NCBI GenBank assembly: GCA_023245355.1
Contig: JAHFKN010000007.1
Span: forward strand, 1 to 63,688
Direction of reading: 5' to 3'
From: Candidatus Gottesmanbacteria bacterium
GTDB lineage: Bacteria; Patescibacteriota; Microgenomatia; UBA10105; UBA927
Length of the DNA: 63,688 nucleotides
In this document: positions 19,903 through 32,077 of the stretch, in pieces
Layout of the letters: each line of letters begins with the position of its first letter
Position numbering within the stretch: the first letter of the stretch is position 1
The notes under the pieces: model-generated
Seen by the model: only the letters and a program-made list of their open reading frames with translations
Told to the model about the DNA's origin: nothing
Databases searched by the model: none
Made by a program: the position numbers and the translations under genes

Positions 19903-20011
19903 ACGATAGTATGTGCAGCGAGGCAGTATTTTGTCAACCCTAGGGACTGTCTTAGCGGGGCGGACGGATTGTATCCCTTGACTCATGCACTTCGGAATCT
20001 ATAATAGCTGT

Positions 20012-20626
20012 ATGGATCAGAGTAAGAAGACGCCGCGCCTTAACTATTCCAGTGTGGCCATATCCGGTCGCCCCGGGGCGGGCAGGAGTACGCTTCTTAA
20101 GAATCTTCGCCCATGTCTGGAATCATTCGGATGGGAATTTTTTTCCGGAGGGGATTGGTCCAGAAAATTTTCCATAGAGCAGGGGAAGCACGACCCCCAA
20201 GACCCCAAGCATCATTTAGCGACGGATTACGGCGATGATGTGGATTATCAGATAGATCAGGCGTTGCGTGAAAAAATATCTCACCCGGAGACCCATATGG
20301 CCGTGGAAAGCTGGATTGCCGGATGGAACGCCCGCGGGCTTACGCATGTTCTGAAAGTACTGCTTATGTGTGATGACGCGCTCAGGATTGACCGCATTGT
20401 CAACCGCGATGACGCAACCGTCGAAGATGCGAAAGAACATCTGCGCACCCGGGAGGAAGCAAATATCGGGAAGTGGAAGCGCCTGTACGGGGTAGATGAT
20501 TTTTGGGATCCGAAATATTATGACCTGGTTATAAACACCTATTCACACGGTCCCAGTCAGACGCTGGAATTGGTATTGCAGGCACTGGGGTATTACAAGC
20601 TCAACGGTCAGCCGAAGAGTGAGTAA
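20012..20626 (+). CDS. cmk: Cytidylate kinase, archaeal/AAA_17 type
   Basis: ISGRPGAGRST P-loop, FFSGGD, ESWIAG, RIVNRD, YDLVINT. TATAAT lies 6 nt before ATG 20012. Confidence 0.75.
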   Translation: MDQSKKTPRLNYSSVAISGRPGAGRSTLLKNLRPCLESFGWEFFSGGDWSRKFSIEQGKHDPQDPKHHLATDYGDDVDYQIDQALREKISHPETHMAVESWIAGWNARGLTHVLKVLLMCDDALRIDRIVNRDDATVEDAKEHLRTREEANIGKWKRLYGVDDFWDPKYYDLVINTYSHGPSQTLELVLQALGYYKLNGQPKSE

Positions 20627-21884: not shown

Positions 21885-22085
21885 AAACCGTATTCATAAC
21901 AGCGGATTAAGCGGCTTCGTCTGCTCCGGAGAGGGTACAGAGGGAACACACAGAAACTGCTCATCGTGTCTCCGGCGGGAGAAAACTGACGGTGTACGTA
22001 CAGATTTTCACCGTACTTTTCCCTCATAAAACATTTCACGAGGCTAGGTTCATAAATTGGAACGTTTTGATATAGAAATTGCCAG

Positions 22086-22114
22086 TTGACTCACCACCGT
22101 TAGTGCTTTAGGAT
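22086..22114 (+). promoter_or_regulatory. Sigma70-type promoter of the nrdR-nrdJ-pduO operon
   Basis: TTGACT (22086-91), 17-nt spacer, TAGGAT (22109-14). Confidence 0.65.
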
Positions 22115-22122
22115 TTTTGAGC

Positions 22123-22168
22123 ACACCAAATATAGTGTTTTTTGATTTCACGACACTACATGCCTAAA
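22123..22168 (+). promoter_or_regulatory. NrdR box (strong, 22123-22138) plus a degenerate second box (22153-22168)
   Basis: ACACCAAATATAGTGT matches the consensus acaCwAtATaTwGtgt at 14 of 16 positions and sits at the predicted start site. The second copy ACACTACATG... starts 30 nt later and matches only the left half. Confidence 0.8.
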
Positions 22169-22182
22169 CGGAAGAGTCTACG

Positions 22183-22638
22183 ATGAAATGTCCATATTGC
22201 ACAAACACTGATACAGAGGTAATAGAGACGAGGGATAGTGAAGATCTTGCAGTAACCAGACGGCGAAGGGGCTGCAGTAAGTGTGCAAAACGGTTTACGA
22301 CATACGAACGGATAGAGACGGTTCCGCTAACCGTGATAAAAAAAGATAAGCGCAGAGAGCCATTTGACAGGGAAAAGCTGGAGCGGGGGATTTGGCGGGC
22401 AAGCGGAAAGACCACAATCAAAGGAGACGACGTCAGAAGAATTGTCGACGAGGTTGAGCGGGAGCTCATCGGAGGAAACAGCACGGAATTACCAAGTAAG
22501 AAAATAGGAGAGTTGGTAGCAAAACGGCTTAAGAAACTGGACAAGATTGCATATATTCGGTTTGCGAGCGTATTTAAACAATTTGTCGATATAGACGAAT
22601 TCGAAGGAGAGTTAAAAAAACTTATTAAAAAGAAATAA
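22183..22638 (+). CDS. nrdR: Transcriptional repressor NrdR
   Basis: MKCPYC...DSE...RRRRGCSKCAKRFTTYE zinc ribbon, ATP cone, and AYIRFASVFK. Confidence 0.97.
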   Translation: MKCPYCTNTDTEVIETRDSEDLAVTRRRRGCSKCAKRFTTYERIETVPLTVIKKDKRREPFDREKLERGIWRASGKTTIKGDDVRRIVDEVERELIGGNSTELPSKKIGELVAKRLKKLDKIAYIRFASVFKQFVDIDEFEGELKKLIKKK

Positions 22639-22640
22639 TT

Positions 22641-25091
22641 ATGGACACAAACCTTACCGGTATCCGAAAAACAGTATTTGCTGACCGCTATGCGCGGAAA
22701 GACGAGCAGGGCGCAGCTATCGAGCAGACACCCGAGGAGATGTGGAGACGGGTGGCGGGGGCAGTCGCACTGATGGAGAAAAAAGAAAACCGCGCACTAT
22801 GGGAAGAAAAGTTTTATGATGCCATGCGCGATTTTGTGCTGGTTCCGGGCGGACGGATTCTCTCGGGAGCGGGCACCGGGTATAAGGTAACCTTCTATAA
22901 TTGTTTTGTTATTCCGAGTCCGCATGATTCGCGCGGAGGCATTTTAAATACACTGTCGCAAATGGTGGAAATTATGTCCCGCGGCGGCGGGGTCGGTATC
23001 AACCTTTCCTCTTTGCGTCCGCGGGGCGCGCGCGTTCAGAAAGTAAACGGATTTTCTTCCGGTCCATGCAATTGGGCGGAGCTCTTTTCCGTCGCAACCA
23101 AAGACATTATCCAGCAGGGCGGCAGCCGCAGGGGAGCGCTCATGCTGATGTTGTGGGACTGGCATCCTGACATAGAAGAGTTTATTACCGTGAAGCAGGA
23201 TCTGCACCGTATTAACGGGGCTAACCTTTCCGTATGTGTTTCCGATGCGTTTATGGCAGCCGTCAAAAACGATGAGGACTGGGATCTTAAATTCCCTGAT
23301 CCGCACGATCCGGACTACGACACGAAATGGGACGGCTATTTGCCGAACTGGATTGCATTAGGGAAAAAACCCGTGGTTCAAAAAACAGTAAAAGCCAGGG
23401 TGCTGTGGGATCTTATCGCGACAGCAGCGTGGAAAAGCGCTGAACCCGGAGTGGTATTCATGGAGAGATACAACAAGCAGTTTAATAATTCGTATTTCGA
23501 ATACATCAATTGTGTAAATCCCTGCGGAGAAGAGGGATTGCCGAATTGGGGTGTGTGTAATTTAACATCGATAAATCTGGCAGCGCTCGTCAATGAAAAG
23601 GGTGAAATGGATTACGCCCGGCTTGCAGAAGTAGCCAAAATCGGCGTCCGGTTCCAGGATGACATCATCGACGCGGATTTTTATGTTTTTGATCAGATCA
23701 AGGAAGTGCAGCTTCACGGGGAACGACGGATTGGCCTGGGCACGATGGGACTCGGGGACGCACTGATAAAAATGAAGCTCCGTTACGGATCAGAGGAAAG
23801 TCTGGCAGTCATCGATAAAATTTACCGGACCGTCCGGGATGCAGCGTACGAATCTTCCGTTGATCTTGCCAAAGAAAAAGGGGCATTTCCGAAGATAAAT
23901 AAGACCAAACATCTGGAGGCATATTTCATCAAAAAATTGCCGGAAACCATCCGGAAAAAGATGAAGCGCTACGGAGTGAGGAATTCCATGATATTGCAGC
24001 AGGCTCCTACCGGATCCACGTCGCTGATGGCCGGCGTATCCAGCGGAATAGAACCGGTGTATGAATTTGAATTTATACGGCGTGACCGGCTGGGGGAACA
24101 TATTCTCCGCCATCCGCTGTATGAAGCATGGTTTCAGGGGTTTACCGCAGAGCACGGTAAGGAACCGACGAGGACAGAGCGGCCGGAATATTTTGTGTCC
24201 GCAAATGATTTGTCTCCTGAAGATCACGTACGCGTACAGGCGGCTATTCAGCAGTATGTCGATGCGTCCATCAGTAAAACAGTAAACGCTCCGAAGACGC
24301 ACACAGTTGATGACGTAAAACGTCTGTATACGCTCGCGTATGAATTGGGCTGCAAGGGGATTGCATACATGCGGGAAGGAAGCCGCGAAGGCGTGCTGAC
24401 CCGGAAAGAAGAGGAACCGAAAAAAGAAGAAATAAAGCAGGTGGCAACACCCCTAATGAGCGCTGAGGTGAAACCCCGGCCCGCGGTGGTTCACGGATCT
24501 ACCTACCAGGTAGAAACGCCTATGGGGCAGGCATATATTACGATAAACACAAACGGCGGAGAGCAGCCGCTTGAGATGTTTGTGAATGTCGGAAAGGCCG
24601 GGAGTGATGTGACGGCAATGGCGGAAGCCCTGGGGAGACTTATCTCTCTGGTACTTCGGGTCGCATCTCCGATTTCTCCGATGGAACGCGCACACCGCGT
24701 TGCAAGCGAACTGATCGGTATCGGAGGAGCCAGGAGTTTGGGATTCGGGGAAAACCGTGTCAGGAGTTTGCCGGATGCAGTAGCGAAAGTGATTGACCGG
24801 CATTTCGGATTTTTTGCAAAACACCGGGTGGATGCGCCGATTGCCGCTACACCCCCGGCAAACGGTCATACCGCTAACGCAAACGGCAACGGACATGCAC
24901 CGGCGGTCGTTGCAACGCCTGCTCCGAATGTAGAACCTGCGGATAAACCGATGACCGTACCGGCTACCCAGATGTTACTCACCGAACGCCGCATGGTAAC
25001 CGTAGATTTGTGTCCGAGTTGCGGTGAGGGGAGTCTGGTTTTTGAGGAATCCTGCAAGAAATGCTACTCATGCGGGTACTCGGAATGTTAA
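22641..25091 (+). CDS. nrdJ: Class II adenosylcobalamin-dependent ribonucleotide reductase with C-terminal TSCPD / Zn-ribbon domain
   Basis: PGGRIL, NCFVI, GGGVG, RRGA, NPCGE, CNLTSIN, APTGS, DASISKTVN, and a C-terminal CPSCG...CYSCGYSEC. No intein visible. Confidence 0.93.
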   Translation: MDTNLTGIRKTVFADRYARKDEQGAAIEQTPEEMWRRVAGAVALMEKKENRALWEEKFYDAMRDFVLVPGGRILSGAGTGYKVTFYNCFVIPSPHDSRGGILNTLSQMVEIMSRGGGVGINLSSLRPRGARVQKVNGFSSGPCNWAELFSVATKDIIQQGGSRRGALMLMLWDWHPDIEEFITVKQDLHRINGANLSVCVSDAFMAAVKNDEDWDLKFPDPHDPDYDTKWDGYLPNWIALGKKPVVQKTVKARVLWDLIATAAWKSAEPGVVFMERYNKQFNNSYFEYINCVNPCGEEGLPNWGVCNLTSINLAALVNEKGEMDYARLAEVAKIGVRFQDDIIDADFYVFDQIKEVQLHGERRIGLGTMGLGDALIKMKLRYGSEESLAVIDKIYRTVRDAAYESSVDLAKEKGAFPKINKTKHLEAYFIKKLPETIRKKMKRYGVRNSMILQQAPTGSTSLMAGVSSGIEPVYEFEFIRRDRLGEHILRHPLYEAWFQGFTAEHGKEPTRTERPEYFVSANDLSPEDHVRVQAAIQQYVDASISKTVNAPKTHTVDDVKRLYTLAYELGCKGIAYMREGSREGVLTRKEEEPKKEEIKQVATPLMSAEVKPRPAVVHGSTYQVETPMGQAYITINTNGGEQPLEMFVNVGKAGSDVTAMAEALGRLISLVLRVASPISPMERAHRVASELIGIGGARSLGFGENRVRSLPDAVAKVIDRHFGFFAKHRVDAPIAATPPANGHTANANGNGHAPAVVATPAPNVEPADKPMTVPATQMLLTERRMVTVDLCPSCGEGSLVFEESCKKCYSCGYSEC

Positions 25092-25100
25092 TATAGCTAC

Positions 25101-25667
25101 ATGCCAATCTACACCAAAACAGGCGACACCGGCACGACATCCCTGTTCGGGGGTAAGCGGGTATTAAAGTGCGAAGAACTTGTCGATGTGTACGGTTCCA
25201 TAGACGAACTGAATTCGTGGATAGGGAAAGTCGCAAGCGACATCGAGTCACCCGACGTACACGTGTTTCTTGCTGCTATTCAGTCTGATTTATTTTCAAT
25301 CGGAAGTCATCTGGCAGGATGGGTTACCGGGCTTCATGAACTGCCCAAGCGTGTCAAAGAAATGGAAGAACGGATAGATATTTTAGACGATAAATTGCCG
25401 AAGCTTTCCAATTTTATCCTCCCCGGAGGAACCAGACTTGCCTCTGATATCCATTTGGCCAGAGCAGTATGCCGCAGAGTTGAACGGCAGACCGTAGCGT
25501 TGGGTCAGAAACAGAAGATCGACACGAGGATTTTCGTGTATCTGAACCGCCTGTCCGATCTGCTGTTTATGCTGGCACGGTTTATCAATCATGAAGCCGG
25601 AATTGTAGAAGTGACATGGTCAGGTATTGACCGGAACGCTCACAAAGAGTACAAAGAGACGAAGTAA
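25101..25667 (+). CDS. pduO: PduO-type ATP:cob(I)alamin adenosyltransferase
   Basis: IYTKTGDTGTTSL, YGSIDELNS, FILPGG, ARAVCRRVER, YLNRLSDLLF. Confidence 0.95.
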   Translation: MPIYTKTGDTGTTSLFGGKRVLKCEELVDVYGSIDELNSWIGKVASDIESPDVHVFLAAIQSDLFSIGSHLAGWVTGLHELPKRVKEMEERIDILDDKLPKLSNFILPGGTRLASDIHLARAVCRRVERQTVALGQKQKIDTRIFVYLNRLSDLLFMLARFINHEAGIVEVTWSGIDRNAHKEYKETK

Positions 25668-25757
25668 GGACACGAGGAACGCTGTGGAACTCAGCGACTG
25701 TGCCGCAACGGTAAAGTCCGGAACTCCCCCTTACAGTATCCCGAGCAGGAGGATTTT

Positions 25758-27779
25758 ATGGAGAAACCATCTCCGACATACGATATTGCTTCACGCTACG
25801 CGCACACCATGCGCGAAGATACGGAAAAAACCGACCGGTTCTACGACCGCATGGCGCTTCGCGGTATTGCGGTATTACGGGACAGCCGGGAGGAAGATCA
25901 GCCGGTTTGGCGCGGGGATCACAGTTATAATTCCGATGCAGCGACGTATTCCCTCATGCATTTTATAGAGCCGGAAGTTGCCCGTGAGCACCCCGACTGG
26001 ACACAAGTGCAGATTCATGCGGATGCAATCGACCGTTTTCAAAAGCGCCTCGCACAGGATTTATCGTATGAGCGCGGAGAAATTGCCCACGAAGAGTCAG
26101 TTGTCCGCTGGCGGCCGGTTGAAACAAAAAACGGGATTGAACTTGCTACCGAGTACGGAGATACGATGGTGACATTGCAGGAATTGTGGGAGCACACAAA
26201 AGAATACGCGGCATTTGCAGGAAACCCCGCGGCGTATAACAGTCAGGAGCATGAGGCCCAGCTCCGGATGCAGGAGACACTCATTAACGGAACATCACAC
26301 GGGTTTGTGAGTGTATTGTCTCATCCTGACGGCGTGCGATATGTACAGATCTGGCAAACGTCCGATGCAGGAGATGTCATATCGCAGCATGTGGATTTAT
26401 ATGCAGCCACGGGCCGGGATTTTACTCCGGAAGAAGCAAAAGATCTTATTTACCATCTGTCGGATTTTCACGCCAGCAATGCTGACGCTGAGAAACAACA
26501 GCACAAAAATTCCTATGCGCATTTTTTTTGGCGTGAGGGATCCGTGAATGCCGAGGACGTGCGGACGATCGCGATTGCGCAGTCAGTATACAGCAGTGAC
26601 CGGGTGTATGAGCGGGAGACGGTTTCGGTGTCGCGCCGGAGAAAGGATTCCGGGGTTGTCGTGAATGATATCGGAAACGGTATGCGGCAGGCAGGACGGT
26701 TTCTGGCAGTTGAGATAGAGGAAAAAATCCGCGCAATCGGGAGTATAGCCAGCAGGCCGGAGATAAAACGCAGTACCAAACCTGCAGCAGCTGCAGGGAA
26801 AGAAAAACGCAGTGTTCCCGTCAGGGTGCAGGTGCTTCCGGTGTCTGAAAAAAGCCGCGCGAATGAAACGCACAGCGAATCCGTATCATCGGCACATACC
26901 GGTAAAGAAGGGCTAAAATCCGCGATGGCTGAATGGTGGATTTCCAAAACAATGCTGGCATATGCCGGCCGGGTGCCGGCAGCGCCCAATGCCATACTGT
27001 ACTGGTTTACCCGGATTGCGGAAAGCAAAACGAACGTCCAAATCCCGGAAAAAATGTTTATGCCGGAGCCGCACGGTAAGCCCGGTGTTGCACCTGAACA
27101 CAAGGCGCTTTTGAAACGCCGTGAAGCAAAGAACGCTCCGGATGCCTGGAATGCGTTTATTGATAGGATTAAAAAATCGGTAGGATTGCGCGCACCGTTC
27201 CTGCGCCGGGAGCGTTTCCCCGAAAGAGCCAATAAAAAGGAGTATGGAAACGATGCAAAACGCTTTGTCGTCCCGAAACCGGGTGAGACACGCCCCGAAA
27301 TATCACTCATAGCCGTGTACTATGCGGCAGCAACCCTCTTATCCCGGTTTTTTACGCAGCCGGAGTTACCCCGCTCACCAAAGCTGCCCAAAGAGATCGT
27401 GCGCGTCAGAATCCGGCAGGAAGCTAAGGGTGAACCGGAGCGCGCGAGTGCCGTATCGTTAGGACGCCTTATGTTTGCCATCGTCGTGTGGTGGATGTAC
27501 GGCGTTTCACCGGAAGCAGTGCCGGCAAAAACAGTGTCAGGCGGCCGTGCGTCAAAAGAAACGAATAAGAAACCGGAAGAGACAGAAGAAACAAACCCGT
27601 CAGAGAACCCCGTGTGGATTCTGCTTTCCATTATCTGGCAGCTTGCCATGATCCGGGAATCGGCTTTGTCTGGGTCTCAGGTGCCGGCAGCAAATCAGCA
27701 AACGAGTAGCCGCCCCAAACGAAAACGGAAACATGCAGCATTGCCACAGCATGGCATCATATTCGCCTTTGCTTCATGA
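25758..27779 (+). CDS. Large hypothetical protein (673 aa)
   Basis: Long ORF with SD AGGAGG. Globular-looking N-terminal half, low-complexity basic middle, two or three hydrophobic C-terminal segments. No recognised motif. Confidence 0.75.
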   Translation: MEKPSPTYDIASRYAHTMREDTEKTDRFYDRMALRGIAVLRDSREEDQPVWRGDHSYNSDAATYSLMHFIEPEVAREHPDWTQVQIHADAIDRFQKRLAQDLSYERGEIAHEESVVRWRPVETKNGIELATEYGDTMVTLQELWEHTKEYAAFAGNPAAYNSQEHEAQLRMQETLINGTSHGFVSVLSHPDGVRYVQIWQTSDAGDVISQHVDLYAATGRDFTPEEAKDLIYHLSDFHASNADAEKQQHKNSYAHFFWREGSVNAEDVRTIAIAQSVYSSDRVYERETVSVSRRRKDSGVVVNDIGNGMRQAGRFLAVEIEEKIRAIGSIASRPEIKRSTKPAAAAGKEKRSVPVRVQVLPVSEKSRANETHSESVSSAHTGKEGLKSAMAEWWISKTMLAYAGRVPAAPNAILYWFTRIAESKTNVQIPEKMFMPEPHGKPGVAPEHKALLKRREAKNAPDAWNAFIDRIKKSVGLRAPFLRRERFPERANKKEYGNDAKRFVVPKPGETRPEISLIAVYYAAATLLSRFFTQPELPRSPKLPKEIVRVRIRQEAKGEPERASAVSLGRLMFAIVVWWMYGVSPEAVPAKTVSGGRASKETNKKPEETEETNPSENPVWILLSIIWQLAMIRESALSGSQVPAANQQTSSRPKRKRKHAALPQHGIIFAFAS

Positions 27780-27792
27780 TAGAATGAATTAT

Positions 27793-28239
27793 ATGGATAC
27801 CCTGCCTAGTACATCACCATCTCAAGGTGTTCCCAATACCCCGGGAAGCGGCTTTGTGCCGGTTGCAGGAAGCATGGCAAAAGAAGTAGCGCCCATTACA
27901 ACTACCACCGCAGAAATTCCTACGGTAACGGAAGCCGGAAAAGAAACAGAGCTTTCTCCCGAGGTTGTCAAAGCAGGAGTAAAAATGAGTGCCGATTCCG
28001 TTGTGCTCCCCAAAATTGTTCAGCAGATGGGTGTGCATGTGGTAGGACCTCAGGCGCCGGTATCAGCAGAAGCAGCTGCGATTTCGCTTCCTCTTTCCGA
28101 CGAACAGATCGCCAAGGGACTTCACCAGAGTATCCTGACGTCGTGGCGGTGGCTTTCCGAGTGGTGCAAACGACAGCTGCTGCAGGCGCATCTTACGATA
28201 AAATCCATGCATGGAAAAACAGTGCGGACGCACGAATAG
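27793..28239 (+). CDS. Hypothetical protein with conserved-looking C-terminal helix (SWRWLSEWCKRQL)
   Basis: ORF between the orphan gene and the VirD4-like ATPase. The start was chosen because TG-A-TAGAAT lies 7 nt before ATG 27793. Confidence 0.7.
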   Translation: MDTLPSTSPSQGVPNTPGSGFVPVAGSMAKEVAPITTTTAEIPTVTEAGKETELSPEVVKAGVKMSADSVVLPKIVQQMGVHVVGPQAPVSAEAAAISLPLSDEQIAKGLHQSILTSWRWLSEWCKRQLLQAHLTIKSMHGKTVRTHE

Positions 28240-28251
28240 CGTAGTACGATT

Positions 28252-30600
28252 ATGCCGATAGAATTTGCTGATATCACATATCAACTGGAAGTGCTGGGTG
28301 TGGCACTTATCATCCTGACGTTTTGTCTCATAGGCCTTGCGGTATTAGGATACGCGCTGTTTATTTTATGGAAATACCGGGACAGGGAAAAACGTTCCAT
28401 GGAATATACCCTGATCCAGGTTGCTACCCCCCGGGACAACGAAACCAAGATTGATGCTGCAGAACAGATGTTCGCCAGTCTTCATGCGATGCATCATGGC
28501 GGATTCTGGTCGTTTCTCAAGCCGCAGGACCATATATCGTTTGAAATTGTCGCAAAGCGGGAAGATATACGGTTTTACATCGCGGCCCCCAAACGCTTTA
28601 TCGATTTAATCGAAAAGCAAATTCACGGCTCATACCCGGGCGCGGATCTTAAGATCGTGGATGAATACAATATTTTCAGTGAAAACGGTAAAGTAGCATT
28701 CGCAGCTCTTACCCCGAAAAATTCCGATTATCTGCCGATCCGTATTTTCCGCGATCTTCCGATAGATCCGCTGTCGTCACTTACGTCCGTGTTGGCAAAA
28801 ATGTCGGAAGGGGAAGGAGCGGCAATCCAGATTCTCGTCCAGCCGGCAGGCAGCAAGTGGGCCGGTTTGGGCCGCTCATATATTTCCAGGACGAAAAAAA
28901 ATGAGGCAAATCCCGAAAAAGCGAGTTTTAAAGTCGATTCCAAAACACTCGAATCGATAGAACAGAAAGTTTCCAAACCCGGATTTAACACGGTCATCCG
29001 GCTCGTGGTAAATTCCACAAGCAAAGAAGCCGCGGACGCGCATTTGGAGAATCTTATCACGTCGTTTCATCAGTTTACGTCCGATCATAATTACTTTTCC
29101 AAAGTAAAACATCCGATGCGGAAGTTTTTCATGATCGATTTTATTTACCGGTATTTTCCGATGGTAAACCTGCCGTTTTTTAAACAATACGGGGTGTTAA
29201 ACAGTGATGAACTGGCGACCATTTACCATCTGCCGAATAAGTCCATAGAGACGCCGCACGTCTTTTGGCTCAATGCAAAACGCGCGCCCGCACCTATGCA
29301 GATTGCCTCCAGCGGACAGTTTATCGGTATATCCAGATACCGCGGCATGGACCGGCCGATTTATATCGGCGATGATGACCGGCGGCGGCATTTATACGTG
29401 ATCGGAAAAACCGGTACCGGAAAATCACAACTTCTGGAAGAGTTGGTAATCCAGGACATAAAGGCCGGAAAAGGACTTGCCGTTGTCGATCCGCACGGAG
29501 ATCTGATCGACGGAATTTTAAACAGGATACCACCTGAACGTGCTGAAGACGTGATTTATTTTGATCCGTCAGATACCGAACGGCCGATGGGTCTTAACAT
29601 GCTGGAAGCGGAAACCGAAGAACAAAAACATTTTGTCGTCACCAGCATCGTCGGACTTATGTACAAGCTGTACGACCCCCAGAAAACCGGTATTATCGGA
29701 CCCCGGTTTGAACATGCCGTCAGAAACGCCATGCTGACGGTTATGTCGGAGCCGGGCAGTACGTTTATCGAAGTGGTCCGTATTTTGACGGACAGTAATT
29801 TTGTTCAGGAGTTACTGCCGAAAGTGCAGGATCCCATCATCAGGAGATACTGGACGGATCAGATTGCGCAGACTGCGGATTTTCACAAATCGGAAGTACT
29901 GGATTATATCGTGTCTAAATTCGGCCGGTTCGTTACCAACAAGCTGATGCGTAACATCATCGGACAATCGCAGTCGAGTTTTAACTTCCGCAAAGTCATG
30001 GACGAAGGAAAAATTCTTCTGGTTAATTTGTCCAAAGGAAAACTGGGAGAAGAAAACAGTAATTTCTTGGGATTAATTCTGGTTCCGAGAATATTGATCG
30101 CCGCCATGAGCAGGCAGGATATACCGGAAGATAAACGGCGCGATTTTTATCTGTACGTCGATGAATTCCAGAATTTTGCGACTCCGGATTTTGCGCAGAT
30201 TCTTTCTGAAGCCCGGAAATATCGGCTGAGTCTTACTGTCGCCAACCAATTTATCGGACAGATGGAAGAAGAGGTGAAAAACGCGGTATTCGGAAACGTC
30301 GGAACGCTGATTACGTTCCGCGTGGGGGTAACCGATGCCAATTATCTGCAGCATGAATATCAGCCCACGTTTAATGAAATTGACCTTATCAATATCGATA
30401 AGTACAATGCGTATGTCAAAACGATCGTACACAACGAACCGGTGAAACCGTTCAGTATTGATTTATCCAAAGATATGAGTATCGTAAAGTCGGAACAGAA
30501 CAGGGAAGTTGCCAAAGCAATCATCCAATTATCCCGGCTCAAGTACGGTCAGGCCCGTGAATTGATAGAGGCGGAAATTCAGGAACGTGCTCGGTTATAA
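28252..30600 (+). CDS. VirD4/TraD/TrwB-like (HerA/FtsK superfamily) membrane-anchored ATPase
   Basis: N-terminal TM, DRRRHLYVIGKTGTGKS Walker A, DPHGD, LYVDEFQNF Walker B, EARKYRL-x3-ANQ, GNVGTLITFRVG. Confidence 0.9.
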   Translation: MPIEFADITYQLEVLGVALIILTFCLIGLAVLGYALFILWKYRDREKRSMEYTLIQVATPRDNETKIDAAEQMFASLHAMHHGGFWSFLKPQDHISFEIVAKREDIRFYIAAPKRFIDLIEKQIHGSYPGADLKIVDEYNIFSENGKVAFAALTPKNSDYLPIRIFRDLPIDPLSSLTSVLAKMSEGEGAAIQILVQPAGSKWAGLGRSYISRTKKNEANPEKASFKVDSKTLESIEQKVSKPGFNTVIRLVVNSTSKEAADAHLENLITSFHQFTSDHNYFSKVKHPMRKFFMIDFIYRYFPMVNLPFFKQYGVLNSDELATIYHLPNKSIETPHVFWLNAKRAPAPMQIASSGQFIGISRYRGMDRPIYIGDDDRRRHLYVIGKTGTGKSQLLEELVIQDIKAGKGLAVVDPHGDLIDGILNRIPPERAEDVIYFDPSDTERPMGLNMLEAETEEQKHFVVTSIVGLMYKLYDPQKTGIIGPRFEHAVRNAMLTVMSEPGSTFIEVVRILTDSNFVQELLPKVQDPIIRRYWTDQIAQTADFHKSEVLDYIVSKFGRFVTNKLMRNIIGQSQSSFNFRKVMDEGKILLVNLSKGKLGEENSNFLGLILVPRILIAAMSRQDIPEDKRRDFYLYVDEFQNFATPDFAQILSEARKYRLSLTVANQFIGQMEEEVKNAVFGNVGTLITFRVGVTDANYLQHEYQPTFNEIDLINIDKYNAYVKTIVHNEPVKPFSIDLSKDMSIVKSEQNREVAKAIIQLSRLKYGQARELIEAEIQERARL

Positions 30601-30679: not shown

Positions 30680-32077
30680 ATGAGTGAACAGACAGCAGAA
30701 AGCGGCCCCGATAAAAAGCATAACGTCATCGTATACATATTTAACATGTCGGAGGATGTCTGGCCGTTTATTTCGGCCATGTCCGATCCCAACGCGAGAA
30801 GCGCAGAAATAGTGGAGAACGGATATTTGGGAGATGTGCGGCTGTTCCAGTTTGCCGGGGAAGACAGCGAGGTACTTTACATCACCCCGCAGGGAGTAAG
30901 CCAGGAGTTTTTACAGTATTATCAGTCGCTGTTCGGACAGAAAAAACTGACCGTGCTCACGACCGCCCAGCACAGCGGCGTTATCTGTGAAGATATTCTG
31001 CATGATCCCTCGATCATGAATGCGCTGGTTGAAGCGGCGAATTCCTCGAAAAAACTTACCGTAACAAGTTACGCCGTAAGCCAGCAATTTCTTCATCTTG
31101 TGCGTGCGCTCCGGGAAAAGGGATTAACCATCGCGACTCCCGAAGCGCCGGATGAGGAAGACGGGTGGACCGTCAATTTTTTCGGAAGCAAATCCGGCAT
31201 CCGGCAGTTGGCCCAGCAAAGCACGAACGAAGAACCGGATTTTAAGATGGCCGACGGTGTCATCTGTTTCGGTATTGAGGACGCGTCAAAAATTGCAGCA
31301 ATCCGGTATGTCAAAGAGCAGGGCGTCGTCATTAAAACAAACAAGGGTCATTCCGGAATGGGAGTCGAGATATTTGAGCCGGGTGATTTACCGGGTGAAT
31401 ACCACGCGTGCCAGGCCAAGATATATGCGCTGCTGGAAAAAGATGCCTATTGGCAGAAGTTTCCGATCATTATCGAAAAGCTCATCCAGGTCAGCAGTAC
31501 GATTGCCGGAGGGAATCCGAATGTGGAGTTTAAAATAAGCAGAAACGGGAGAATTGATTTCCTGTATCACTGCGGCGTACTGGTGACCAAGGACGGACAG
31601 TTTCACGGGATAGAAATCGGCAATGATATTATGCCGGAGCGGGTAGCGGCTCAGATCAAGGATACCGGGTTTTATATTGCCGAGCGGTTCGCCGCAGCCG
31701 GTTACCGGGGATATTTTGACGTGGATTACGTCGCAGGGAGAAACGGTGAAATTTATGTCGCGGAATCAAATGTCAGAAGTACCGGAGGAACATTCGTCTA
31801 TACGACTGCCGTTGCACTGTTCGGAGAAAATTTTATGTTTGATACGTATCTGTTTTCAAATAACGGATACATGATCACACACTTGAAACGCCAGACATTT
31901 GCGAGTATACGCGACAGACTGGCTCCTATTCTTTTTGATAAAAAGACGAAAGAAGGACTCATTATCACATCGGAAAATCTTCTGCGCATGCAGAAACTGT
32001 CGTTTATCATTTTTGCAAAAAATAAAAAGCGCTCCTATGAGATAGAAGCCCGCATGGAAGAACTTCTTCACACCTGA
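30680..32077 (+). CDS. ATP-grasp fold protein of unknown function
   Basis: VIKTNKGHSGMGV, IIEKLI, and GYRGYFDVDY...YVAESNVRSTG (E-x-N) motifs. Confidence 0.75.
   Translation: MSEQTAESGPDKKHNVIVYIFNMSEDVWPFISAMSDPNARSAEIVENGYLGDVRLFQFAGEDSEVLYITPQGVSQEFLQYYQSLFGQKKLTVLTTAQHSGVICEDILHDPSIMNALVEAANSSKKLTVTSYAVSQQFLHLVRALREKGLTIATPEAPDEEDGWTVNFFGSKSGIRQLAQQSTNEEPDFKMADGVICFGIEDASKIAAIRYVKEQGVVIKTNKGHSGMGVEIFEPGDLPGEYHACQAKIYALLEKDAYWQKFPIIIEKLIQVSSTIAGGNPNVEFKISRNGRIDFLYHCGVLVTKDGQFHGIEIGNDIMPERVAAQIKDTGFYIAERFAAAGYRGYFDVDYVAGRNGEIYVAESNVRSTGGTFVYTTAVALFGENFMFDTYLFSNNGYMITHLKRQTFASIRDRLAPILFDKKTKEGLIITSENLLRMQKLSFIIFAKNKKRSYEIEARMEELLHT

Follow-up and report, generated by a model that had tools for sequence, protein, structure and literature searches.

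A class II ribonucleotide reductase operon with predicted NrdR and cobalamin riboswitch control, the likely single dNTP-synthesis locus of a B12-auxotrophic Candidatus Gottesmanbacteria bacterium

The DNA analysed here (the window) is a stretch of 63,688 nucleotides, contig 8 of a Candidatus Gottesmanbacteria draft genome of 1,275,218 bp (12 contigs, 94.9% complete). It carries three closely spaced genes, nrdR, nrdJ and pduO, preceded by a promoter with two predicted NrdR boxes and followed by a cobalamin riboswitch and an orphan gene, orf673 (Table 1). Family searches covered this whole genome. For comparison we used 61 genomes of the class (Microgenomatia) with a genus subset of 17 other genomes, about 20 loci fetched from relatives for the promoter and the riboswitch, and the 80 best pduO loci among all prokaryotes. 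An earlier interpretation of the window made from its letters alone (the sequence-only reading) had described nrdR, the gene of a class II ribonucleotide reductase (RNR) and pduO, separated by gaps of 2 and 9 bp. The open reading frame coordinates and the family matches agree with this description, the gaps being 2 nt between nrdR and nrdJ and 9 nt between nrdJ and pduO.

The nrdR product matches TIGR00244 with 178.7 bits (equivalog cut-off 124.65); PF22811 covers residues 1–42 and PF03477 residues 50–134, and the four zinc cysteines (C3, C6, C31 and C34) are present. In the structure of Streptomyces coelicolor NrdR, the DNA-contact residues are D15, R17, R26–29 and R37 (PMC9110341). The protein encoded in the window retains R17, R26–R29 and R37 and has Glu, not Asp, at position 15.

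The nrdJ product scores 564.6 bits against TIGR02504 (equivalog cut-off 399.95) and has an additional TSCPD domain. Its closest solved relative is the class II NrdJ of Thermotoga maritima (1XJE/1XJK), in which C134, N320, C322, E324 and C333 align to C88, N293, C295, E297 and C306 of the window protein; C295 takes the place of the thiyl cysteine, C88 and C306 that of the redox pair, and N293 and E297 are the aligned Asn and Glu. Both proteins also share a Cys-rich C-terminal tail, which in the window reads CPSC...CKKCYSCGYSEC, while the window NrdJ is longer by about 170 residues, including the TSCPD domain and a low-complexity linker. The class I model TIGR02506 also matches the protein, just over its cut-off. 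Because no NrdB small subunit (PF00268) was found in the genome, the best solved relative is of class II and the tail is Cys-rich, NrdJ was assigned to class II and not to class I, and it is predicted to depend on adenosylcobalamin. The nrdJ genes of six relatives contain in-frame insertions of about 1–2 kb, giving open frames of 1034–1581 aa. These insertions look like inteins, and none is present in the nrdJ of the window.

The pduO product matches TIGR00636 over residues 4–173 with 194.8 bits (cut-off 108.45), as well as solved PduO-type enzymes including those of Lactobacillus reuteri (3CI1) and human (2IDX), with E values from 1e-27 to 1e-38. Its N-terminal motif is YTKTGDTGTTS, in which we take KTGDTGTTS to be the ATP-binding motif.

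Upstream of nrdR, a consensus scan returned TTGACT-17-TAGGAT as the sole promoter-like site, and transcription would start, judging from these hexamers, at box 2. This box reads ACACCAAATATAGTGT, and no other site in the genome comes as close as 1 mismatch to the NrdR consensus ACACWAWATWTWGTGT; shuffled sequences gave 0. The sequence-only reading had drawn the NrdR site over positions 22123–22168. Its first half holds, but its downstream half does not: a second box at 22153–22168 has 8 mismatches and is not conserved, and in six relatives the start codon lies 14–23 nt past box 2 and therefore leaves no space for it. The partner of box 2 lies upstream. The right half of box 1, TAGTG, is kept in relatives exactly 32 bp 5' of box 2, which makes a spacer of 16 bp, and apart from boxes 1 and 2 no tandem pair in the genome has summed mismatches of at most 7 at a spacing of 31–33 bp. 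Published NrdR box pairs have a spacer of 15–16 bp as the norm (PMC12051234). The pair in the window thus consists of two 16-bp boxes, the first degenerate, separated by 16 bp and overlapping the promoter of an RNR operon. Because box 1 falls between the -35 and -10 hexamers and box 2 at the predicted start, repression by occlusion would be the natural reading.

These palindromes could also belong to another factor, or to the promoter only, with nrdR regulating elsewhere or not at all. The degeneracy of box 1 would suit this explanation, as would the two conserved motifs at 22056–22067 and 22144–22152, to which no factor is assigned. It is hard to reconcile, however, with a box 2 that is one mismatch from the NrdR consensus and unique in the genome, with the canonical 16-bp spacer of the pair (PMC12051234), with the retention of the DNA-contact residues R17, R26–R29 and R37 in NrdR (PMC9110341) and with the proof of a like arrangement for S. 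coelicolor nrdRJ. We accordingly give it little credence and retain NrdR as the probable ligand of the two boxes.

The sequence-only reading had let the operon end at pduO. Its three genes stand, but a class II cobalamin riboswitch, which it did not mention, follows them directly: the aptamer starts one base 5' of the pduO stop codon (25665–25667). It is the only cobalamin riboswitch in the genome and lies 3' of the adenosyltransferase gene in 20 of the 20 loci fetched from relatives. In an alignment of 14 copies, compensatory double changes were observed in 9 of the 15 predicted pairs. As in other members of RF01689 (AdoCbl-II, formerly AdoCbl-variant), the aptamer is compact, has no large P6 extension and has covarying stems. 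It differs from these riboswitches in its position within an operon and in its predicted control of a protein that has no known link to B12.

The hairpin behind the aptamer is probably its expression platform. Its 3' strand contains the Shine-Dalgarno sequence AGGAGG (25747–25752), five bases 5' of the ATG at 25758, and its stem covaries among relatives (UCC/GGA, CCUU/AAGG, CCC/GGG) around a conserved CGAGCA loop. An L5–L13 kissing-loop platform, in which the downstream hairpin bears the ribosome-binding site, has been described for cobalamin riboswitches (PMC9600662). In the loci studied here the hairpin with the ribosome-binding site after P1 is conserved, and the loop-loop pairs could not be assigned. 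The hairpin points to a translational off-switch of this kind. Since neither a terminator nor a consensus promoter was found between pduO and the riboswitch, the latter is probably part of the operon transcript. One promoter candidate inside pduO, TTGACC-17-TACAAA at 25627–25655, failed the consensus scan, and read-through from the operon promoter was assumed. At five loci from other Microgenomatia the riboswitch is placed in the nrdJ-pduO interval or flanks pduO on both sides, so that B12 probably controls the adenosyltransferase itself there.

Table 1. Positions in the window of the features of the nrdR-nrdJ-pduO locus, followed by those of the neighbouring genes.
Feature	Position	Strand	Basis or remarks
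Conserved upstream element, TTTGATATAGAA	22056..22067	+	Shared by nearly all of the 20 loci from relatives, at constant distance to -35
Sigma-70-like promoter, TTGACT-17 nt-TAGGAT	22086..22114	+	Consensus scan; both hexamers kept in ~20 relatives
Predicted NrdR box 1, degenerate, TCACCACCGTTAGTGC	22091..22106	+	In -35/-10 spacer; 6/16 mismatches to consensus
Predicted NrdR box 2, ACACCAAATATAGTGT	22123..22138	+	At predicted transcription start; 1 mismatch to consensus; kept in relatives
Conserved leader element, GATTTCACG	22144..22152	+	Kept in relatives; in several immediately 5' of nrdR ATG
nrdR, Zn-ribbon and ATP-cone repressor, 151 aa	22183..22638	+	TIGR00244, PF22811, PF03477
nrdJ, class II adenosylcobalamin-dependent RNR with Cys-rich C-terminal domain, 816 aa	22641..25091	+	TIGR02504
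pduO, PduO-type ATP:cob(I)alamin adenosyltransferase, catalytic domain only, 188 aa	25101..25667	+	TIGR00636, PF01923
Class II cobalamin riboswitch aptamer	25664..25734	+	RF01689, 39.4 bits (gathering score 36.5)
Hairpin, probable P13 expression platform	25738..25754	+	Predicted by folding
orf673, lineage-specific orphan, 673 aa	25758..27779	+	First gene under the riboswitch
orf168 (small, Pro-rich) and orf782 (782 aa, membrane-anchored VirD4/TraD-like ATPase)	27733-30600		3' of orf673
Cytidylate-kinase-like P-loop protein	19985-20626		5' of nrdR
HD-domain protein, 191 aa	20730-21305		5' of nrdR
Protein of 188 aa	21318-21884		5' of nrdR
Protein of 465 aa, pre-ATP-grasp domain	30680-32077		3' of orf782; syntenic in most relatives

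The sequence-only reading had supposed that the cell scavenges cobalamin and adenosylates it just for DNA precursor synthesis, and had named class I and class III RNRs, corrin synthesis and btu or ECF-CbrT uptake genes as what to look for in the rest of the genome. The RNR large subunit family PF02867 has a single match genome-wide, NrdJ itself; the class III enzyme NRDD (PF13597) is without a match, so that NrdJ is the sole RNR found. Neither a B12-binding domain (PF02310) nor EutB was detected. No corrin methylase was found, the only TP_methylase match being RsmI, and CobS, the marker used for nucleotide-loop synthesis, is likewise without a match. On the uptake side, the FecCD/BtuC permease (PF01032), the T component of energy-coupling factor (ECF) transporters (PF02361), DUF6580 (PF20221) and DUF4430 all gave nothing; neither of the known importers BtuCDF and ECF-CbrT has a match in this ~95% complete genome, BtuM-type carriers not having been searched for. 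These whole-genome absences support both suppositions: cobalamin would be scavenged, and no other B12 enzyme domain was found for which it would have to be adenosylated.

It could be argued that assembly artefacts account for both the apparent auxotrophy and the missing importer, and that a transporter, other B12 enzymes or a further RNR lie in the 5% of the genome that was not recovered, absence from a draft of 94.9% completeness in 12 contigs being no proof. Against this, the same absences recur in relatives, near-complete ones included (DUF6580 is present in 2 of the 17 other genus genomes, the ECF T component in 5 of the 61 class genomes). Moreover, a linked or complementary adenosyltransferase accompanies NrdJ in all but one of 54 genomes, and the corrin pathway needs more than 20 genes, of which not one marker was seen. 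An assembly gap is thus an improbable source of these results, and a B12-auxotrophic cell is the reading that we keep.

Association of the adenosyltransferase with NrdJ was then considered across genomes. A clear NrdJ is encoded by 54 of the 61 class genomes; 46 of these have PduO, and a CobA-type enzyme is found in 7 of the 8 that do not. An adenosyltransferase therefore occurs in 53 of the 54 nrdJ-bearing genomes, and in about 49 of the 53 its gene adjoins nrdJ. In one relative (G041), a CobA-type gene sits at the exact position that pduO holds in the window genome. Replacement of PduO by a CobA-type enzyme at this fixed position argues strongly that NrdJ is what the adenosyltransferase serves. 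Among the 80 best pduO loci, nearly all of those from the Candidate Phyla Radiation (CPR), as recognised by title or synteny, have nrdJ upstream, and nrdR too wherever the locus extends far enough. None of the loci titled Bacteroidota, Gemmatimonadota, Micrarchaeota or Myxococcota has an upstream nrdJ. The nrdJ-pduO linkage, which the sequence-only reading had proposed to survey in CPR bacteria, is conserved throughout the class, with the CobA-type enzyme in place of PduO in some lineages. Many records of close relatives carry the label 'uncultured Gammaproteobacteria bacterium', which is wrong, as is shown by the synteny of these records with Gottesmanbacteria loci.

Together, these results lead us to propose, with a probability of roughly 0.8, that the operon is the single locus for deoxynucleoside triphosphate (dNTP) synthesis of a B12-auxotrophic CPR cell, with feedback through NrdR and through a B12 riboswitch. 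In this model one promoter would drive nrdR, nrdJ and pduO. NrdR carrying dATP plus ATP would bind as a tetramer to the two boxes 16 bp apart, and their occupancy would block RNA polymerase and tie the synthesis of NrdR and NrdJ to the dNTP pool. The cell would have no ribonucleotide reductase besides NrdJ and no other recognisable B12 enzyme, and PduO would convert imported cobalamin to the adenosylcobalamin that NrdJ needs. Bound cobalamin would most likely hide the ribosome-binding site of the next gene, orf673, in the hairpin. The locus would thereby be subject to two feedback loops, one sensing the dNTP level via NrdR and the other the B12 level via the riboswitch.

The reductant of NrdJ, left unexplained by the sequence-only reading, can now be accounted for in part. 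A Cys-rich C-terminal domain of this type mediates turnover in class II RNRs (PMC5704485), and in the window NrdJ it most likely returns reducing equivalents to the enzyme. The adjacent genes trxA and trxB (C9:3797-5057) encode a thioredoxin and a thioredoxin reductase, which are only candidate donors.

Several points weigh against the proposed model. A NrdJ with a Cys-rich domain was inactive with thioredoxin or glutaredoxin systems (Loderer et al., PMC5704485). Box 1 is weak, with 6 mismatches in 16 positions, and its conserved half could be retained for promoter reasons. PduO can serve other ends elsewhere, as two class genomes have it without a clear NrdJ. The diol dehydratase large subunit was unmatched genome-wide, but the control genomes were silent as well, so that this search had no positive control. 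As the draft is incomplete and split into contigs, each single gene absence could reflect an assembly gap. Finally, sequence and structure searches found neither B12-binding nor transporter features in orf673, the gene under the riboswitch.

This last protein has no match in Pfam, NCBIfam or the ESM Atlas. Homologues number 68 in a clustered collection, and a profile search through 1.84 billion representatives returned only 93; all are unannotated, and the 93 proteins have the same build as orf673. The single homologue with a named source is a hypothetical protein of a Patescibacteria bacterium, and the family is apparently limited to this lineage. Homologues lie syntenically in the slot behind the riboswitch in 17 of the 17 other genus genomes. 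In the AlphaFold model, residues 55–290 form a confident alpha/beta N-terminal domain (predicted local distance difference test, pLDDT, >90). A Foldseek search of the PDB with this domain returned no hit below E 0.05, and the best match from VIA-align over 48,161 chains was PAS-like with a Z of 4.8, which is within noise. The C-terminal half consists of isolated helices in basic disordered linkers, and the full-length model shows no membrane bundle. From its position behind the riboswitch, orf673 would be regulated by B12.

In four relatives (G017, G026, G031 and G041), the first genes behind the riboswitch encode a DUF4430 protein with a signal anchor, placing it at the surface, and a DUF6580 membrane protein. 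With the DUF6580 profile a match was obtained (E 0.002) to 6FNP chain A, which is CbrT, the S component that binds B12 in ECF-CbrT; searches of the PDB with single DUF4430 or DUF6580 sequences, and with the DUF4430 profile, returned nothing. In G026 and G041 a second riboswitch stands directly 5' of the gene in the orf673 slot. DUF6580 was detected in 13 of the 61 class genomes (G013, G017, G018, G021, G026, G027, G031, G041, G042 and others). Its genes are found mostly in genomes without an ECF T component, both occurring together in G024 only. The CbrT-like DUF6580 proteins may act as solitary carriers with the DUF4430 protein at the surface.

These observations raise the possibility that orf673 is the missing factor for B12 acquisition or handling, membrane-associated and made when B12 starvation opens the riboswitch; it would capture, import or pass on cobalamin, filling the role that the DUF4430 and CbrT-like proteins have in relatives. 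It is the first gene after the only B12 riboswitch of a genome without a known importer, it is retained in the slot throughout the genus, where DUF6580 reaches only 2 of the 17 genomes, and in G026 and G041 the slot gene is preceded by a separate riboswitch, additional to that in front of DUF4430 and DUF6580. The protein itself fits this role poorly, having no signal peptide, weak hydrophobic segments and isolated helices instead of a membrane bundle, with noise-level, PAS-like matches as the best that its N-terminal domain yields. The distribution is not simply complementary either: DUF6580 coexists with orf673 in G013 and G017, and orf673 is missing from G031. The slot proteins ORF383 of G051 and ORF386 of G041 were rejected as orf673 homologues, as no homology could be detected, and ORF542 of G026 aligns to orf673 at only 15% identity. 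We therefore regard a role of orf673 in B12 acquisition or handling as tentative and rather doubtful. With the same reserve, orf673 might found a new, lineage-restricted class of such proteins for Gottesmanbacteria that have no BtuCDF, ECF-CbrT or DUF4430.

A quite different function of the riboswitch is suggested by the genes that follow. orf673, orf168 and orf782 overlap or are 12 nt apart, and orf782 matches coupling-protein and DNA-translocase families. The riboswitch could then gate a B12-independent backup in which the three products import DNA or deoxynucleotides when NrdJ idles, in parallel with the B12 riboswitches that repress B12-independent isozymes; orf782 follows nrdJ-pduO across the class, in one locus directly. 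However, orthologues of orf782 (60–96% identity) are present in 60 of the 61 class genomes, including three without NrdJ or PduO, and the expression platform hides the ribosome-binding site of the first gene only. The placement of the riboswitch before pduO itself in other Microgenomatia also fits control of B12 use or uptake better than control of a bypass. We consider the backup route unlikely. Because orf782 is present in 60 of the 61 genomes, NrdJ-less ones included, it looks like a core gene in a conserved gene order, and it was rejected as a B12-specific component. Both orf168 and orf782 have counterparts downstream of the locus in every relative. Paralogues of orf782 at 35–36% identity were seen at C9:114918-117086 and C4:111556-113142, with at least one in most class genomes, and no other conjugation genes were noticed near orf782.

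On the other side of the operon, the HD-domain protein and the 188-aa protein keep their position upstream of nrdR in nearly all fetched relatives. The genes between 19985 and 21884 may have a part in nucleotide salvage and thereby a link to the RNR operon.

Both core halves of the arrangement have experimental precedents, Streptomyces nrdRJ and the Lactobacillus cluster of nrdJ, uptake genes and pduO. In S. coelicolor, nrdR is co-transcribed with the class II RNR gene behind a box pair and regulates itself (PMC9110341). The window operon resembles this system in its two 16-bp boxes over the promoter and in a Zn-ribbon and ATP-cone NrdR with R17, the RRRR run and R37. It departs from it in that box 1 keeps only its right half and that an adenosyltransferase gene has joined the operon; Streptomyces possesses a class I RNR in addition and synthesises B12, whereas here NrdJ is the sole RNR and the cell cannot, on the present evidence, make B12. 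In the B12 auxotroph Lactobacillus delbrueckii, the cluster nrdJ-cbrS-cbrT-pduO unites RNR, adenosyltransferase and uptake genes (PMC5997447), and relatives of the window genome carry a distant CbrT homologue in the same cluster. Unlike L. delbrueckii, the window genome lacks both a CbrT-like gene and an ECF T component, the slot is taken by an orphan, and riboswitch and NrdR control are added. The window locus is set apart from both by the union of the two arrangements in one unit, by the riboswitch inside the operon, and by a CPR genome in which NrdJ is the sole RNR and none of the importers searched for was found. No paper on such an arrangement in CPR bacteria or Patescibacteria (cobalamin, nrdJ) was found in a literature search of limited coverage, which is weak evidence of novelty.

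Members of the CPR have not been brought into culture, possess minimal genomes and rely on other cells. The exchange of PduO-type and CobA-type enzymes at one position is clear evidence, drawn from comparison, for NrdJ as the enzyme that the adenosyltransferase serves. For the missing step of B12 entry or handling, the riboswitch directs attention to a single small protein family; if orf673 does represent a new class of such proteins, it would supply cobalamin, perhaps directly from a host cell, for the sole ribonucleotide reductase. With all DNA-precursor synthesis resting on one scavenged vitamin, B12 supply could limit the growth of these bacteria and be a lever for their cultivation.

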